Assembly (NCBI GenBank): GCA_002413705.1
Contig: DHXN01000008.1
Coordinates: 16,576 to 66,285, forward strand
Length of the DNA stretch: 49,710 nucleotides
Origin: Candidatus Nomurabacteria bacterium UBA5155
GTDB taxonomy: Bacteria; Patescibacteriota; Minisyncoccia; Phycocordibacterales; UBA9973
Reading direction: 5' to 3'
Under the pieces are notes generated by a model, which did not search any database, had not been told where the DNA came from, and worked only from the letters and a program-made list of their open reading frames with translations. A program made the translations under genes and the position numbers. Of this stretch, positions 2,705-46,453 are shown piece after piece (position 1 is the first letter of the stretch; the number at the start of each line of letters is the position of its first letter).

Positions 2705-3477
2705 AGATAATTAGTTATAATATTTGGGATTTGCCGTTGTGGTTTGTGCGCAATAGAAAAAAGCGATTGCTTGAAATTGGCAACTTGCTAAGCGATCAAC
2801 ATATGGAAATCATATGCTTTCAAGAGTCATGGGATCTTGAACATCGCGCGGCGCTCTCAGCATATCTCAGAGAAAGAGGGTATCATGATGCCATTCATCA
2901 AGCACAGATCAAACGCAACAATGGCGGATTGCTGACATTTTCAACATTTCCCATTACGTCAGTGCGATTTATTCCTTTTGGCAGAAAAGGACTCTCAGTC
3001 AGTGAAGTTATTGGCAATAAAGGAGTGTTGGAAACTATCATACAAACACCGAAAGGGCCGCTCCGCATCTTGAATCTGCATCTTCATCACCAATCAAGCA
3101 AATTTATCAAAACAGAAAAAATACGATTGCAACAGTTGCAGAAACTTTTTAATGATTTGAAACACGAATCACCGCTGCCTACCATTTTGATGGGCGACTT
3201 CAACGAACATGGTATGATGCAAGAGAAATCATATGCCGATCTTTTTGAGAAAGCCGGATTTATTCACCACAACAATGGCACTGAACTCTTGCCAACATAT
3301 CGAACAGAGAACTATTTTGTTAACAATTGGTTAAACCGCGTACCGCAATCACAACGCTATGACTATATTCTGACTAAGGATATAGAAAAAAACGATTTGC
3401 ATTTTAGCGGCTATGCGCCGTGGTACATTGATCCGCCGCTCTCTGACCATGACCCTGTGGTATTAACAGTCTTATAA
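2701..3477 (+). CDS. endonuclease/exonuclease/phosphatase (EEP) family protein
   Basis: MKIISYNIW, ICFQESW, MGDFNE and SDHDPV motifs. Its ATGA overlaps the end of the upstream gene. Confidence 0.8.
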   Translation: MKIISYNIWDLPLWFVRNRKKRLLEIGNLLSDQHMEIICFQESWDLEHRAALSAYLRERGYHDAIHQAQIKRNNGGLLTFSTFPITSVRFIPFGRKGLSVSEVIGNKGVLETIIQTPKGPLRILNLHLHHQSSKFIKTEKIRLQQLQKLFNDLKHESPLPTILMGDFNEHGMMQEKSYADLFEKAGFIHHNNGTELLPTYRTENYFVNNWLNRVPQSQRYDYILTKDIEKNDLHFSGYAPWYIDPPLSDHDPVVLTVL

Positions 3478-5310: not shown

Positions 5311-5368
5311 ATAGGAGAATAGTAGCATGAGCTATAAAAAAAACCTCTTTCGAGGAATTTTTTAGATG

Positions 5369-5757
5369 TGGATATGGGGATATTGAAATCCCGTGTAGAG
5401 AAAGTGAACAAGTAAATCTCCATGCGTAGCACTACTTTTTGTTTAAAGCATAATCTTAAAGTAGTGCGAAATGATTATGTCCCGAGTCTCGACTTATTCG
5501 GCGAATTCCTGAGACAAGGAAGACTACCTATTCTGATGCATGTTGCCGCAATTGTTTTATCAGAAATCAAACATTGCGACACCGGCTTGACCTAAATTAG
5601 GCGAAGATCGGAATGGCACCACCAAATGCTACTGCATAGGGAGATGCCACTTTAGATGAACTTGTTACAGTTATCTGTTGAACGACGGTTGCGGGAGTAC
5701 GTTCATGCCCGGCATGCATACGAGTTCAAGCTTTCACTATCGAAACCTGACATACCC
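5369..5757 (-). ncRNA. ssrA: tmRNA (SsrA)
   Basis: On the minus strand, the 5' GGGTATGTCAGGTTTCGATAG pairs with the 3' CATATCC-A. This gives a 7-bp acceptor stem with the G3:U70 alanine identity pair. A T-arm GGGAT-TTCAAT-ATCCC is present. An internal tag ORF, GCA TCT CCC TAT GCA GTA GCA TTT GGT GGT GCC ATT CCG ATC TTC GCC TAA, lies at 5647-5597. The gene starts 4 nt after the smpB stop. CCA is not encoded. Confidence 0.85.
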
Positions 5758-6259: not shown

Positions 6260-8179
6260 ATGCCGAAAAAAGACAAAAACACCGTACCCCCTCAAGAAGG
6301 AAATCCCCAAAAGAAACCAGACCCAAAGAAGCGTTCACTTTCTTCTTATATATTCAGTACACTGCTGATATTTGCTGTGATCATGGTGGTATTCTCACTG
6401 TTCTCTGGAGTTGGCACACCAAAAACAACTACCGTGACACTTTCAGAAGTAGCTCGTCTGGCTGAAGCGGGACAAGTGAAAAGCATTGTCATTACAGACG
6501 AAGATCTGACGGTAACAAAAACTGATGACTCTGTGGTGAAGTCGGTGAAAGAAACTGATGCATCACTGGTGCAAACACTTTCATCATACGGAGTGGACGC
6601 GACTCACCTCAATGCGCTTGATATCAGTGTTTCAACACAGTCTGGATTTATGTATTTCTTGGTGACATTCTTGCCAATCATTTTACCAATTCTTCTTGTA
6701 ATATTCTTCTTCTGGATGCTGACACGTCAGTCCAAAGGAGCAGGTATGCAAGCATTCACATTTGGACAATCCAAAGCGCGTATCACTGACCCTAATGACA
6801 ACACCAATCGTGTCACCTTCAAAGATGTGGCCGGCGCGCGCGAAGCAAAAGAGGAACTGAAAGAAATTGTCGACTTCCTGCGCAATCCAAAAAAGTTTTT
6901 GGAAATCGGCGCGCGTATTCCTAAAGGTGTGCTGTTGACCGGAGCACCGGGAACAGGTAAGACATTGCTTGCTCGTGCGGTAGCCGGAGAGGCAGGTGTG
7001 CCGTTCTATCATTTGTCCGGTTCTGAATTCGTTGAAATGTTTGTCGGTGTCGGTGCGTCTCGCGTGCGTGATCTTTTCAAAATGGCCAAGCGTGCAGCGC
7101 CGGCAATTATTTTTATTGATGAAATTGATGCTGTCGGACGAGTCCGCGGTGGTGGCTATGGAGGCGGCAATGACGAACGAGAACAAACACTCAATCAAAT
7201 CCTGGTTGAAATGGACGGCTTTGAGCCAAATGATAAAGTGATCGTGATGGCAGCGACAAATCGTAATGATGTGTTGGATCCTGCATTGCTTCGTCCGGGT
7301 CGCTTTGACCGTCGAGTGATACTCGACCTGCCTGATCGCCGCGATCGTGAAGAAATTCTCGAAGTGCACTCAACCAAGAAACCGTTCGGCGAAGATGTGA
7401 ATTTGAAAGTGATCGCGGAACGCACACCGGGATTTTCTGGCGCCGACTTGTCATCATTGATGAATGAGGGCGCGATCCTGGCAGCGCGTGAAAACCGCAA
7501 GAAAATTTCTCAGTTTGATCTTATTCGTTCGATTGAAAAAGTGATGATCGGTCCAGAACGCAAGAGTCATTTGTTTACCAAAAAAGAAAAATTGATCACC
7601 GCATATCACGAAGCCGGTCACGCGCTTGTGGCATCAGTATTGCCTGATGCTGATCCGGTGCACAAGATTTCTATCGTGGCGCGCGGACGTGCCGGCGGAT
7701 ACACATTGAAGCTGCCGCTTGAAGAACGAAAGCTTCAGACACGCAAAGAATTTTTGGATGACATTGCCATGAGTCTCGGCGGTTATGCCGCAGAACAAAT
7801 GATCTTTGGCGACGTGACCACTGGTCCTTCAAATGACTTGCAGGTGGCCAGCAGTTTGGCACGCGCCATGGTCACTCGCTGGGGTATGAGTGACAGCATT
7901 GGTCCGGTGGCGCTTGAAAATGACGGCGGACGCGCGATGTTCGGACAGGGCGTGGAAAGCAAAGAATACTCTGAAAAAACCAGCGCATTGATTGACTCCG
8001 AAGTGCAGCGCATCATGAACGAAGCAATGACGCGCGCTCGCGAAGTGCTCACTACTTACAAAAACGTCTTGGAAATCATCACCAAAAAACTGATGGATGT
8101 CGAAACACTTGAACAGCCGGAGTACGAAGCGATTCTTTCTGCGCATGGCATTGAGCTTAAGAAATTAGAGGTTCTCTAG
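6260..8179 (+). CDS. ftsH: ATP-dependent zinc metalloprotease FtsH
   Basis: Walker [29 protein letters not shown], the SRH motif and the zinc site HEAGHAL. An N-terminal TM helix is present. The start is at MPKKDKN. Confidence 0.95.
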
Positions 8180-10255: not shown

Positions 10256-10921
10256 ATGGCTCGTAGAGAAGACAAAATAAAAGCAATACAAATGAGGCAA
10301 AAAGGAATGAGTTATTCCAAGATAAAGACTGTTCTGAATGTGAGTAAGAGCACTTTAAGTAATTGGCTTTCTGGTGTAGTGCTTTCAAAAGAACAGTTAA
10401 GTAAGTTGAAAGAAATTACTCCTCAAAAAATAGAACGATATAGAGAAACTATGAAAATTAAAAAAACCGCTCGACTAGAAACTGTTTTTCAAAAAGCACA
10501 ATCTGATATCGGTATATTATCTCAACGAGATCTATTTGTTGCTGGTATTGCTTTATACTGGGGAGAGGGAACAAAAGCACAGCCTGCCCATGTTGCGTTG
10601 ACGAATACTAATCCTGCAATGTTACAATTTTTCCTTAAATGGATTGATATTTTTAATATAGACAAAAGTAAAATACGAATAAGATTGCATTTATACAACG
10701 ATATGGATATTAAAAAATCAATGCAATTTTGGTCAAAAGAACTTTCAATACCACTTGCACAGTTTCGAAAACCGTATATAAAGAAAACGAGTAGTTTTAG
10801 CATTACCTATAGGAATAGTTTCAAAATGGGGACATGCAGTGTAACATATGGCAATGCACCGTTATATGAGTATATAATGATGTGCATAAAGGTTCTTGAA
10901 TCCCCAATAATCCGCTCTTAG
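10256..10921 (+). CDS. HTH + LAGLIDADI-like (single-motif) homing-endonuclease-like protein
   Basis: N-terminal resolvase-type HTH (GMSYSKIKTVLNVSKSTLSNWL). It is followed by FVAGIALYWGEGTK, a LAGLIDADI-type motif ending in an acidic residue plus G. The last 10 nt, including the TAG stop, lie inside the tRNA gene. Confidence 0.6.
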   Translation: MARREDKIKAIQMRQKGMSYSKIKTVLNVSKSTLSNWLSGVVLSKEQLSKLKEITPQKIERYRETMKIKKTARLETVFQKAQSDIGILSQRDLFVAGIALYWGEGTKAQPAHVALTNTNPAMLQFFLKWIDIFNIDKSKIRIRLHLYNDMDIKKSMQFWSKELSIPLAQFRKPYIKKTSSFSITYRNSFKMGTCSVTYGNAPLYEYIMMCIKVLESPIIRS

Positions 10922-10984
10922 CTCAGTTGGTAGAGCAGTCGTCTTATACACGACCGGTCCATGGTTCGAATCCATGAGGGCGGA
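10912..10984 (+). tRNA. tRNA-Ile (anticodon UAU)
   Basis: Hand fold: acceptor CCGCTCT/AGGGCGG (C1-G72, one U-G); D arm GCTC-AGTTGGTA-GAGC; anticodon arm GTCGT-CTTATAC-ACGAC; T arm CATGG-TTCGAAT-CCATG; discriminator A. Confidence 0.85.
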
Positions 10985-11025
10985 CAATATTTACTTTCAA
11001 CAAAAATCTAGTATAGTTTTCTTAT

Positions 11026-16896: not shown

Positions 16897-16981
16897 GGAG
16901 GATTGGATGAGTGGTTTAAATCAACGGTTTACTAAACCGTCGACTGTAAAAGGTCCGTGAGTTCGAATCTCACATCCTCCG
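16897..16981 (+). tRNA. type II tRNA, Ser-like, anticodon ACU
   Basis: Acceptor GGAGGAT/ATCCTCC with all pairs Watson-Crick. 3-bp D stem GAT/ATC with GG in the loop. Anticodon arm ACGGT-TTACTAA-ACCGT. Long variable arm CGACTGTAAAAGGTCC. T arm GTGAG-TTCGAAT-CTCAC. Discriminator G. Confidence 0.7.
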
Positions 16982-17007
16982 CCGCTACTTTAGGGTATAA
17001 TCATCCT

Positions 17008-17643
17008 ATGAATCAAGAACAACAGCTTACTGAATATCTCTTAAAAAAATATAACCCACTCGCAATTCTCATTCACGGTTCACGAGCAAGCGGGTATGCG
17101 CGCGAACATAGCGATTGGGATTTTGCGATTATCGTAGACAAAGATATTGAAGTTGAGCGAGAAATAATTGATGGAGCAAATATCGAGATACGAGTACTGC
17201 AACTTCCTTTCGATGCACAAAAGATTGGAGACAAATGGATAGCCCTTAGAAAAGGGAATGTTAAAGTTGTATACGATCCTCAAAATATCACAGAATCAAT
17301 AATTGAAAAAGTTACAGAATACTATAACAAGCCGATGGTATGGGCGAAGGGAGAGATTTTTGGACACAAGGCTTGGTACCGTTCTCATACAGACGGCATG
17401 ATCGATTATCAGAATGACCATCTCGCGTTCTACAGAAAATTAAGTGAGCTTTATACAAGATCAATAATGTATTGGTTTCATTTCCTGCATAATACATACA
17501 TGCCCCAGGTATATCTTTCATTGCCTCGAATTGAAAAAGAGGACCCTGAACATTATGAACTTCTAAAGGTTCTCGCCGGAAATGGTACGAATCAGGAAAA
17601 GATTGAAGCAGCTGAGAAAATTTATAACAGAATTTGGAAATAA
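17008..17643 (+). CDS. nucleotidyltransferase-fold protein (KNTase-like: NTase + helical C-domain)
   Basis: ILIHGSRASGYAREHSDWDFAIIV matches GS-x(n)-DxD. The start at MNQEQQ is preceded by TATAAT 6 nt upstream. The longer ORF would overlap the tRNA. Confidence 0.75.
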   Translation: MNQEQQLTEYLLKKYNPLAILIHGSRASGYAREHSDWDFAIIVDKDIEVEREIIDGANIEIRVLQLPFDAQKIGDKWIALRKGNVKVVYDPQNITESIIEKVTEYYNKPMVWAKGEIFGHKAWYRSHTDGMIDYQNDHLAFYRKLSELYTRSIMYWFHFLHNTYMPQVYLSLPRIEKEDPEHYELLKVLAGNGTNQEKIEAAEKIYNRIWK

Positions 17644-25980: not shown

Positions 25981-25985
25981 ATGTG

Positions 25986-26070
25986 CGGAGACGGCGAGAT
26001 TCGAACTCGCGAGGCTTTGACACCTGCCTCCTTAGCAAGGAGGTACGTTAGACCACTCCGACACGTCTCC
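25986..26070 (-). tRNA. tRNA-Ser (anticodon GCU)
   Basis: On the minus strand: GGAGACG...CCTCC-TTGCTAA-GGAGG...long variable arm...CGAGT-TCGAATC...CGTCTCC-G. Confidence 0.85.
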
Positions 26071-40596: not shown

Positions 40597-43111
<2,515 letters not shown>

Positions 43112-45334: not shown

Positions 45335-45395
45335 TTTCGGAAAACGCCATTTGCATTAATCTGATAAGGATTGTATAATCCAACCCTAACTATAT

Positions 45396-45466
45396 CGCGG
45401 GGTAGAGAAGTGGTATCTCGTAAGGCTCATAACCTTAAGGCAGCTGTTCGATTCAGCTCCCCGCAA
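45396..45466 (+). tRNA. initiator tRNA-fMet (CAU)
   Basis: C1 opposite A72 gives a mismatch. A11:U24 in D stem GAGA/TCTC. Anticodon arm TAAGG-CTCATAA-CCTTA. T arm AGCTG-TTCGATT-CAGCT. Confidence 0.8.
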
Positions 45467-45511
45467 CAATTTACAAATAGGCTCATTATGCTATAGTCTT
45501 GTGGCACTTAT

Positions 45512-45585
45512 GCCGGTGTAGCTCAGGTAGTTAGAGCATCTCACTCATAAAGAGAAGGTCACAAGTGCAAATCTTGTCATCGGCA
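45512..45585 (+). tRNA. elongator-type tRNA with CAU anticodon (Met, or Ile2 if lysidinylated)
   Basis: Acceptor GCCGGTG/CATCGGC. D arm GCTC-AGGTAGTTA-GAGC. Anticodon loop CTCATAA. T arm ACAAG-TGCAAAT-CTTGT, with G at position 55. Confidence 0.7.
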
Positions 45586-45621
45586 CACTTCACAATATTT
45601 ATTACTAATTTTACTGAGTAA

Positions 45622-46293
45622 ATGCCAGTTTATAAAAATGTAAATAAAAAATTTTTTAACATATGGACTTCTGAAATGGCATACGTGCTAGGATTTTTTG
45701 CTGCCGATGGTTATATTACAGTTAATAAAAGAGGTGGACAATATTGGGGTATTCAAATTATTGATAAAAATTTGTTGGAAGAAATTAAAAAGGTGATTGG
45801 ATCTGAACACGCTATTGGTTGTAAAAAAGGTAAGGAAAATGAAAGCACATTATATCGTCTTCAGATCGGCAGCATTGAAATATGTGATGCACTTCGGGGG
45901 TTGGGGTTTTCTGAAAAGAAAACAAACAATATGACACTGCCCGGTGTCCCGGAAGAGTATGTTGGAGATTTTATCAGAGGATATTTTGATGGTGATGGCA
46001 ATGTCTGGGTTGGTAAGAATAATGCGCGTCGAGAAAGAAGTGTTGATACGATACTTGTCATGTTTACTTCCTGTTCTGAATCATTCTTACAGTCTTTGAA
46101 ACAAAGACTCATTTTGAAAGGTTTAAAGGGTGGTTCACTATATTCCTTAAAAGAAGGGTATTTTCGGCTTTCACTGAGTGTGCAGGACTCTTTGAAATTA
46201 TTCGAAATTATGTATAATAACAGCACGTCAGAGAGCTTGTATCTAAAGCGAAAGAAAGACGTTTTCGAACAATTTATAGCAATGCGACCGTAG
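45622..46293 (+). CDS. double-motif LAGLIDADI homing endonuclease
   Basis: LGFFAADGYI and IRGYFDGDGNV motifs about 100 aa apart. The last 10 nt, including the TAG stop, lie inside tRNA-Asp. Confidence 0.85.
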   Translation: MPVYKNVNKKFFNIWTSEMAYVLGFFAADGYITVNKRGGQYWGIQIIDKNLLEEIKKVIGSEHAIGCKKGKENESTLYRLQIGSIEICDALRGLGFSEKKTNNMTLPGVPEEYVGDFIRGYFDGDGNVWVGKNNARRERSVDTILVMFTSCSESFLQSLKQRLILKGLKGGSLYSLKEGYFRLSLSVQDSLKLFEIMYNNSTSESLYLKRKKDVFEQFIAMRP

Positions 46294-46358
46294 CTCAGCT
46301 GGTTAGTAGCGCCCGCCTGTCACGCGGGAGGTCGGCGGTTCAAGTCCGCTCGGTCGCG
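46284..46358 (+). tRNA. tRNA-Asp (GUC)
   Basis: Acceptor GCGACCG/CGGTCGC, anticodon arm CCCGC-CTGTCAC-GCGGG, T arm GGCGG-TTCAAGT-CCGCT, discriminator G. Confidence 0.9.
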
Positions 46359-46363
46359 CAAAG

Positions 46364-46393
46364 AAAAAGAACCATAGAAATAGGGTTCTTTTT
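46364..46393 (+). terminator. terminator after tRNA-Asp
   Basis: AAAAAGAACC-10-nt loop-GGTTCTTTTT. Confidence 0.55.
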
Positions 46394-46453
46394 CGTATAC
46401 TTGAAATTTGACTTTATATAGGGAAAATGTAGAGTGAAGAAAAATTGAAAATT

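Follow-up and report, generated by a model that had tools for sequence, protein, structure and literature searches.

A probably mobile LAGLIDADG endonuclease gene of Patescibacteria abuts tRNA-Asp and borrows its stop codon from the tRNA

We analyzed a 49,710-nt stretch (the window) of the genome of Candidatus Nomurabacteria bacterium UBA5155 (contig DHXN01000008.1, positions 16,576 to 66,285), in which an open reading frame (ORF) for a 223-aa LAGLIDADG protein lies within a tRNA cluster and ends inside tRNA-Asp. A first-pass annotation of the window had proposed the order tRNA-fMet, tRNA(CAU), a 36-nt gap, the 223-aa ORF and tRNA-Asp. ARAGORN, Rfam and the ORF listing confirmed this order; the gap is 35 nt if the ARAGORN end of the tRNA is used and 36 nt by the Rfam end. 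The locus comprises the following features.

45350..45379, plus strand: sigma-70-like promoter TTTGCA-18-TATAAT, 5' of tRNA-fMet; identified by a 10/12 consensus match alone; candidate start of a polycistronic transcript
45396-45467, plus strand: initiator-type tRNA-Met(CAT) (ARAGORN, Rfam)
45470..45497, plus strand: second promoter-like site, TTTACA-16-TATAGT with TG, 5' of the second tRNA(CAT) (consensus scan)
45512-45586, plus strand: tRNA(CAT), elongator Met or Ile2 (ARAGORN, Rfam)
45587..45621, plus strand: 35-nt spacer between the second tRNA(CAT) and the ORF
45622-46293, plus strand: free-standing double-motif LAGLIDADG homing endonuclease gene, 223 aa, without a stop codon of its own (ATG 45622 to TAG 46293)
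45688..45714, plus strand: LAGLIDADG motif 1, LGFFAADGY (family alignment)
45976..46002, plus strand: LAGLIDADG motif 2, RGYFDGDGN (family alignment)
46284..46293, plus strand: 10-nt overlap of the ORF and tRNA-Asp
46284-46359, plus strand: tRNA-Asp(GTC), intron-less (ARAGORN, Rfam)
46300..46324, plus strand: putative endonuclease target segment within tRNA-Asp, predicted from the consensus of a pseudo-site in relatives; its parts are TGGTTAG (46300-46306), AGCGCCCG (46308-46315) and CCTGTCACG (46316-46324)
46307, plus strand: extra T in the tRNA-Asp D-loop (GGTTAG^T^AGC), a candidate immunity change
46363..46394, plus strand: terminator-like hairpin followed by a U-run, directly 3' of tRNA-Asp (dG -14 kcal/mol, z = -4.6)

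The first tRNA has a C1xA72 mismatch, a sequence feature of the initiator type. A tRNA(CAT) of the second kind is the upstream neighbor of the endonuclease gene in most relatives. At its other end, the ORF closes with the codons ATG CGA CCG TAG, and G46284 is position 1 of tRNA-Asp. Positions 1-10 of the tRNA provide the last base of Met221, the codons for Arg222 and Pro223, and the stop codon, so that TAG 46291-46293 is also U8-A9-G10 of the tRNA. The proposed ORF end, stop position and 10-nt overlap were all confirmed from the sequence; the start of the tRNA was checked against the stop and precedes it, at 46284 as against 46293.

The ORF at 45622-46293 encodes a double-motif LAGLIDADG protein. 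Pfam matched LAGLIDADG_3 (E=3.5e-12) in two stretches of the protein, and the catalytic aspartates, D29 of motif 1 and D125 of motif 2, were invariant in an alignment of 21 diverse homologues. An AlphaFold model (pLDDT 87, pTM 0.86) consists of two alpha-beta-beta-alpha-beta-beta-alpha repeats. Foldseek matched this model to I-Tsp061I (E=3.7e-10), I-AniI, I-DmoI and the I-OnuI group; a PDB search from the single sequence returned marginal matches alone (E=0.03). Pfam, the invariant aspartates and the structural matches thus uphold the family assignment made on the first pass. The dN/dS ratio against close relatives is about 0.06-0.12, with dS saturated, which indicates purifying selection on the ORF. 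The database contained 2314 homologues at about 55-60% identity, all of them from Patescibacteria (Candidate Phyla Radiation, CPR).

A scan of one genome per species yielded at least 505 loci with the homing endonuclease gene (HEG). We examined 80 of these; 78, all from Patescibacteria, were not truncated at the edge of a contig and could be evaluated. The ORF terminates inside the 5' part of tRNA-Asp in 68 of the 78 species-level loci, and 47 of those 68 stop at the TAG of tRNA positions 8-10. The remaining 21 enter the tRNA in other frames and stop at a later internal codon, usually TAG. Overlaps among relatives measure 10, 15, 21, 23 and up to 85 nt, and all three frames are used. Counting four further loci, whose ORFs end in a repeat of the initial 12-17 nt of tRNA-Asp, the stop is tRNA derived in 72 of 78 loci; only about five have their own. 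Likewise, among the top 120 metagenomic homologues, more than 85% have C-terminal tails that derive from tRNA sequence (LRL, MRL, MRP, MRS, VVV, AQR and others).

A TAG at positions 8-10 is near-universal, occurring in 210 of the 242 tRNAs of these loci (87%). Hence, where an ORF stops is a given once it reads into a tRNA in that frame. Open frames of at least 100 codons that end at positions 8-10 were found at tRNA-Asp (24 cases) and tRNA-Ile(TAT) (2 cases), and none was found at the other 185 tRNAs with that stop. What is conserved, therefore, is a coding sequence that adjoins the tRNA +1 position and lacks its own stop. We conclude that the arrangement is a conserved system and not chance. 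The first-pass annotation had seen in U8-A9-G10 a recurrent rule of insertion or selection. The geometry does recur, across the endonuclease family and in the GIY-YIG and tRNA-Ile-linked genes described below, but a selected rule for U8-A9-G10 did not survive the comparison: relatives use three frames and stop at the first tRNA-internal TAG that they meet.

In six relatives, the endonuclease ORF ends in a second copy of the first 12-17 nt of tRNA-Asp, along with positions -2 and -1 (L007 3664-3740, L018 1464-1560, L034 1128-1205, L027 1075-1135, L052 3710-3795 and L042 3672-3750). Between the duplicate and the complete tRNA-Asp lie 50-110 nt of unrelated sequence, which is similar in L007, L034 and L027 (GTTTTGG...). 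Such duplications are known only downstream of the ORF, in these six relatives; no tRNA-Asp 5' fragment of the kind expected for a target-site duplication was found upstream of the window ORF.

The genomes closest to the window have GatA proteins 82-87% identical to its own and keep the synteny LigA-GatC-GatA-small protein-tRNA cluster. The slot upstream of tRNA-Asp was found in the following states.

Slot empty (tRNA-Met, spacer, tRNA-Asp): L082/L083 (spacer 31 nt), L084-86 (59 nt) and L213 (38 nt)
Slot with an unrelated, stand-alone 79-aa GIY-YIG gene whose stop is tRNA-Asp positions 8-10: L081 (7493-7732), L087/L088 (7495-7734) and L214 (5470-5709)
Slot with the LAGLIDADG gene: the window, L211 (75% identical) and L212 (67% identical)

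The GIY-YIG gene ends with ...CTG CGG TCG TAG and has the same 10-nt overlap with tRNA-Asp. In this synteny-conserved clade, three carriers and six non-carriers of the LAGLIDADG gene thus differ by presence or absence at one precise site. The gene-less genomes are closer to the window by GatA (82-87% identity) than is the carrier L212 (78%); hence, carriage does not track host relatedness. An uninterrupted tRNA(CAU)-tRNA-Asp spacer, which the first-pass annotation expected among relatives, does exist in L082/L083, L084-86 and L213, but it did not define the insertion point to the nucleotide. That point falls within the last ~9 nt before tRNA-Asp +1, downstream of an extended -10 element in the spacer, and it cannot be fixed more closely because the AT-rich spacer has diverged. 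Homologue P0003 (70% identical) was outside this DNA comparison, and the L215 contig stops short of the tRNA cluster. Decayed copies of the endonuclease gene are rare (L039 and L146, about 2 in 80 loci). Judging from this distribution among relatives, we take the gene to be a mobile, free-standing homing endonuclease gene. Its identity, geometry and mobility are well supported.

Several other remnants were seen at these loci. The L039 copy (3001-3456) has a premature stop 212 nt before an intron-less tRNA-Asp. The L146 copy (metagenome contig Ga0124853_1109893, upstream of 643) contains in-frame stops, keeps an ...RLRS tail and adjoins an intron-containing tRNA-Asp. In L081, a tRNA-Asp-like pseudo-sequence occupies 7365-7475, in the interval that separates tRNA-Met from the GIY-YIG gene. 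It consists, in this order, of GCGGTCGTA, a near-perfect hairpin of ~52 nt (cccgcccgaac...gttcggtacgggcggg) and GCTCAGCTGGTCAGAGC..., and may represent a tRNA copy that has decayed and carries a small inserted element. Distant homologues of the GIY-YIG protein (31-37% identity) occur at other positions in L013, L038, L080, L096 and L118.

The empty sites and the GIY-YIG loci share the extended -10 element (cTGATATAAT), which in the empty site L082 lies 10-12 nt upstream of tRNA-Asp +1. In an alignment, the window spacer (45587..45621) corresponds to the initial part of the empty-site spacer and covers the position of this element, which is degenerate in the window (TACTAATTTTAC). This alignment suggests that the gene probably sits in the tRNA-Asp leader, between promoter and +1. 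In 41 carriers, the distance from the end of a -10-like hexamer to the endonuclease start codon is exactly 6 nt, which suggests a leaderless mRNA that continues into tRNA-Asp. The promoter-like sites of the window are those upstream of the two tRNA-Met genes, which are the best, and two weaker 9/12 matches inside the ORF (45995-46023 and 46055-46084). Given the degenerate -10, the better promoters upstream of the tRNA-Met genes and the terminator-like hairpin after tRNA-Asp, co-transcription of tRNA-fMet, tRNA-Met, the HEG and tRNA-Asp appears to be the likeliest arrangement. The first-pass proposal that the gene is transcribed with a tRNA operon is, to that extent, plausible.

In such a transcript, RNase P cleavage at tRNA-Asp +1 would remove the last three codons of the mRNA, the stop included. 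Only the unprocessed precursor could yield untagged protein, and the processed mRNA would be a non-stop substrate for the transfer-messenger RNA (tmRNA) encoded at 5366-5757 of the window (minus strand; Rfam, 61.7 bits). Our hypothesis is that endonuclease output would in this way be coupled to tRNA processing.

About 40 of the 78 loci have an ORF-less insertion of 200-260 nt between nucleotides 35 and 36 of the tRNA-Asp anticodon, and ARAGORN missed the tRNA in all of these. The junctions read ...CCTGT / AGAcgTGCAGC ... GTG / CACGCG..., the GCAG of the insertion pairs with CUGU to form P1, and its last base is G. Rfam Intron_gpI matched in 10 of 10 tested loci (E=1.9e-19 to 3e-4) and, in addition, in L035 at 52.5 bits; E-value mode was needed, as few introns were found at the gathering threshold. 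The endonuclease gene is always outside the intron, 25 nt upstream of its insertion point, which corresponds in the window to the junction of 46320 and 46321. Intron state is scattered over the protein tree as if at random (Fitch, 24 steps versus 26.9 expected). In a sample of tRNA-Asp loci chosen independently of the HEG, three were informative: L135 has both intron and HEG, L146 has the intron with a decayed HEG, and L124 has neither. The metagenome DNA-pattern scan for such loci was unspecific and returned mostly tRNA-Asp, His and Asn of other phyla.

We also considered that the endonuclease gene might belong to a larger intron or be the ORF of a tRNA intron. We rejected this, as the empty sites consist of ordinary intergenic spacer and the introns, which contain no ORF, come after the gene; Rfam detected no group I intron in the window. 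Outside tRNA-Asp, further strong Rfam group I intron matches occur near tRNA-Met genes in L049 (2522-2758, plus strand; 75.5 bits) and L021 (1824-2038, minus strand; 80.8 bits) and may be introns in other tRNA genes.

What might the endonuclease recognize? Before the start codon, 32 loci have a conserved block in fixed register, aatTGGTTAG-tatAATnt-CCTGTCACG-tGn-TATAAT-N6-ATG/GTG, and the tRNA-Asp gene itself reads cTGGTTAG-AGCGCCCG-CCTGTCACG. The two are identical at 16 of 24 positions with the same spacing. The block is thus a mimic of tRNA-Asp positions ~17-40, with a -10 box in place of the central 8 nt. In about nine more loci, a shorter variant directly adjoins the start codon, and a mimic of some form is present in ~53 of 78 relatives overall. 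Because the mimic resembles the operator of I-TevI, we infer that the enzyme targets the corresponding segment of tRNA-Asp and represses itself at the mimic. The predicted target would run from the D-loop to the anticodon loop of tRNA-Asp (~24 bp, TGGTTAG-N8-CCTGTCACG). This is a typical length for a LAGLIDADG site, and the intron insertion point (CCTGT/CACG) falls inside it. There is no canonical target elsewhere in the window; one match with a single mismatch, at 40807-40828, is at chance level. The mimic is absent upstream of the window ORF and from L211 and L212.

The tRNA-Asp alleles found in carriers are compatible with a reading in terms of immunity. The intron and the sequence of the predicted site were distributed among carriers as follows.

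Canonical site, GGTTAG-N9-CTGTCAC: 27 loci with intron, 5 without
T-insertion site, GGTTAG^T^AGC, half-sites shifted: 0 loci with intron, 10 without

Fisher's test gave p=2e-6 for this association, a statistic that ignores shared ancestry. Loci with intron and canonical site and loci with no intron and the T-insertion were sisters three times on the endonuclease tree, a neighbor-joining (NJ) tree that is star-like and poorly resolved. Among the close relatives, the T-insertion is present in 3/3 carriers and 0/6 non-carriers, all six of which have the canonical sequence (p=0.012, Fisher's exact test, calculated by hand), and T46307 is the only difference between the tRNA-Asp of the window and that of the empty-site L082. 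Since it shifts the spacing of the half-sites, T46307 is a candidate immunity change. These patterns lend the model of target and immunity moderate support.

We propose the following account. The gene would have inserted into the short tRNA(CAU)-tRNA-Asp(GUC) spacer of a Paceibacteria-type genome, a spacer that appears to be the 5' leader of the tRNA-Asp precursor. The enzyme would cut the tRNA-Asp allele of a gene-less chromosome, ~18 nt from the ORF end, and the break would be repaired from the carrier chromosome. The adjacent endonuclease gene would be copied by co-conversion and, where present, the intron or the T allele along with it. Selection for a minimal distance to the cut site, together with genome compaction, would press the ORF onto tRNA-Asp +1, and an ORF pressed onto +1 would have had to borrow its stop. 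The overlap would then mean that only a nucleotide-precise deletion could remove the gene without damage to a probably essential tRNA. In most relatives, the target mimic over the -10 boxes would let the enzyme repress its own promoter; the window would have lost the mimic, and its gene is probably transcribed from the upstream tRNA promoters. Taken as a whole, we judge this account of a mobile LAGLIDADG endonuclease in a tRNA leader to be more likely than not.

Several observations weigh against it. The target, the immunity and the autoregulation are all read from sequence patterns, and the window, which has no pseudo-site, is a place where autoregulation as described cannot apply. The associations above are uncorrected for shared ancestry, with a star-like NJ tree, and the HEG-independent sample contained three informative Patescibacteria-type loci. 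In L046 and L076, the gene adjoins a site that looks canonical and has no intron. Several other carriers without an intron depart just modestly from the canonical site (GGTTAA or CGGTAG left half-sites with the same spacing). Finally, the scarcity of pseudogenes and the strong purifying selection are as compatible with a role that benefits the host as with active drive.

That last point leads to one of two possible readings that we rank below the mobile-endonuclease account. The protein could be a domesticated LAGLIDADG, no longer mobile and vertically inherited as a host factor for tRNA-Asp, either an intron maturase or a promoter regulator. A dN/dS of at most 0.12, about 2 decayed copies in 80 loci, the presence of the gene at one locus in several hundred species and a conserved, protein-binding-like element at its promoter all agree with this, and LAGLIDADG maturases (bI3, I-AniI) are among the nearest sequence and structure matches. 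However, there are precise empty sites at 82-87% GatA identity, another nuclease gene can fill the slot, and carriers are not each other's nearest relatives by GatA. Both catalytic aspartates are invariant, intron state is random on the protein tree, and half of the carriers, the window included, have no intron to mature. We consider domestication quite unlikely. The other reading, which we hold to be unlikely, keeps the gene mobile and moves its target: the enzyme would recognize the uninterrupted junction of the spacer with the 5' end of tRNA-Asp, insertion would destroy the site, and the intron, the T-insertion and the mimic would be lineage features unrelated to it. This is the commonest logic among homing elements. 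The right junction is indeed fixed at tRNA +1, with a T at -1 that filled and empty sites have in common; a repeat of tRNA positions -2 to +12/17 terminates the ORF in some loci; and L046 and L076 are exceptions to the immunity pattern. Nevertheless, neither the length of the empty spacers (31, 38 and 59 nt) nor their sequence just 5' of the tRNA is constant, which would make a poor left half-site. A junction target also leaves unexplained both the 24-bp mimic of tRNA positions ~17-40, in fixed register at 32 or more loci, and the complementary distribution of intron and altered site.

Finally, could the overlap be a chance or annotation artifact, an ORF that simply runs to the first stop it meets? 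That the stop falls in a tRNA would then reflect how common TAG is at positions 8-10 (87% of the tRNAs here), and a one-in-three match of frame would suffice. However, the protein is conserved and structured, its homologues abut tRNA-Asp in 72 of 78 species, and at 0 of 185 other tRNAs with a stop at 8-10 does a long ORF read in. Family-wide conservation refutes this reading, which we regard as extremely improbable.

The window holds a second gene with the same ending. A 221-aa ORF at 10256-10921 (locus 1) stops at TAG 10919-10921, which is positions 8-10 of tRNA-Ile(TAT) (10912-10985); the stop geometry and overlap described for it on the first pass are correct. The two window proteins have no detectable similarity (BLASTP E=3.4), again as described. 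The assignment of the locus-1 protein to LAGLIDADG could not be confirmed. Pfam gave helix-turn-helix (HTH) domains alone, a PDB profile search gave resolvase HTH alone, and an AlphaFold model (pLDDT 80) had no significant Foldseek match. None of these searches supported a LAGLIDADG identity for this protein. The protein has its HTH at the N terminus, and its HTH-containing family numbers 1266 homologues. In about one-third of them, the C terminus is N[IF][RH]P, which results from translating a CC[GA]CCCT acceptor stem up to the TAG of the tRNA. In L089 (2501-3239), the gene has the same 10-nt overlap with tRNA-Ile(TAT); in L090 (2501-3240), it ends at a separate TAA, 9 nt short of the same tRNA. 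Both genes lie between FtsH and tRNA-Ile. The geometry is thus family-wide at locus 1 too.

These findings could be drawn together into a bolder proposal, a self-regulating gene-drive cassette built around an essential tRNA gene in Patescibacteria. Such a cassette would combine a leader-translated endonuclease that cuts gene-less tRNA-Asp alleles between the D-loop and the anticodon, repression through a target mimic, a stop removed by RNase P, interchangeable forms of immunity and convergence of different nucleases. Removal of the stop by RNase P would couple endonuclease dosage to tRNA processing and tmRNA tagging. Immunity would come from a hitchhiking, ORF-less group I intron or a one-base D-loop insertion, with repeated turnover between them. 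The GIY-YIG protein at tRNA-Asp and the HTH protein at tRNA-Ile(UAU) would have converged on the same tRNA-leader niche. We offer this proposal tentatively and think it more apt to fail in some part than to hold entirely.

How does this locus compare with known systems? In animal mitochondria, coding sequences abut or overlap tRNAs, tRNA processing defines the mRNA end, and polyadenylation completes the stop codon. Here, by contrast, RNase P cleavage would remove a stop codon that is already complete. I-Ssp6803I is a PD-(D/E)XK enzyme. This bacterial homing endonuclease acts, as the enzyme proposed here would, on the anticodon region of a tRNA gene in which a group I intron resides. It is, however, encoded inside the intron, whereas the gene described here is outside it, upstream of the 5' exon. 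An intron-encoded endonuclease for the tRNA-fMet anticodon region is cited in PMC3984707.

The phage T4 gene segB encodes a free-standing GIY-YIG homing endonuclease in a tRNA cluster and recognizes the T-psi-C tRNA motif (PMC2330249). The likeness is close: SegB, too, is free-standing between tRNA genes, its site includes a conserved tRNA motif, and the gene is co-converted with flanking tRNA markers. SegB differs in being a phage GIY-YIG enzyme without a tRNA overlap, while the present gene is a LAGLIDADG gene of a bacterial chromosome that shares 10 nt and its stop with the tRNA, and its predicted site spans the D-loop to the anticodon loop of one specific tRNA. In collaborative or trans homing, F-CphI works with a psbA intron and mobE with an nrdB intron (PMC6083498, PMC2790892, PMC3984707). 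The tRNA-Asp intron likewise interrupts the predicted target, so that both elements would protect and mobilize each other. The known cases are from phages and protein-coding genes, and this one is from a cellular tRNA. Moreover, only about half of the carriers have the intron, and the rest, the window included, appear to use point changes in the tRNA; the window tRNA-Asp has no intron, so the adjacent ORF-less intron typical of collaborative homing is missing there. The predicted site also reaches 4 bp past the intron position and is not centered on it. I-TevI represses itself at an operator that resembles its homing site and overlies its own promoter (PMC2988022). Most relatives similarly have a near-copy of the predicted target (16/24, same spacing) over -10 elements. 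The present enzyme belongs to another family, however, the window copy lacks the element, and the repression is a prediction from sequence.

Within the CPR, surveys of LAGLIDADG genes have been confined to rRNA insertions, in a paper that does not mention tRNA (PMC11270868). Those genes are from the same phylum and superfamily, occupy a conserved RNA gene site-specifically and have signs of horizontal spread. They differ in being intron or insertion encoded and mostly single-domain; ours has two motifs, is free-standing and goes with a tRNA. Group I introns in CPR tRNAs have been mentioned in passing (PMC8172020). We found no description of the tRNA-Asp-linked endonuclease family in open-access papers and bioRxiv preprints. 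The system is thus of a known kind, intron-less or collaborative homing; what sets it apart is a LAGLIDADG gene of cellular chromosomes that borrows its stop, probably lies in a tRNA leader and would have interchangeable means of immunity.

With several hundred species, the family would give a first large natural series in which a free-standing homing endonuclease of cellular chromosomes is linked to a single tRNA gene. Its stages can be seen side by side: empty, occupied, apparently protected by an intron or by a mutation, decayed and replaced by another nuclease. Through genome comparison and simple biochemistry, the series makes directly testable some ideas under long debate, on the cooperation of free-standing endonucleases with ORF-less introns, the acquisition of immunity by hosts and the persistence of such genes. 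The intron in the anticodon explains why tRNA-Asp is often missed in annotations of CPR/Patescibacteria, and the protein tails "...MRP" and "...LRL" are explained by last codons that are tRNA sequence. A predicted 24-bp target in a universally conserved tRNA and a compact 223-aa monomer could also be of interest for meganucleases.

We noted some peculiarities of other tRNA genes in the window. All close relatives, the carriers L211 and L212 among them, have near-identical copies of the second tRNA(CAT), from which the window gene (45512-45586) departs strongly. In the window, the T-arm is GTCACAAGTGCAAATCTTGTCAT, versus GGTCGGAGGATCGTTCCCTCC in relatives; the Rfam score of the window tRNA is still 61.9 bits. 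A tRNA-Ser with the anticodon ACT, unusual for bacteria, lies at 16897-16983 (ARAGORN; Rfam tRNA, 55.6 bits), and tRNA-Ser(GCT) is also present in the window, at 25985-26070 on the minus strand. An ORF with a nucleotidyltransferase domain (16957-17643) overlaps the 3' end of tRNA-Ser(ACT) solely by way of an upstream GTG start.

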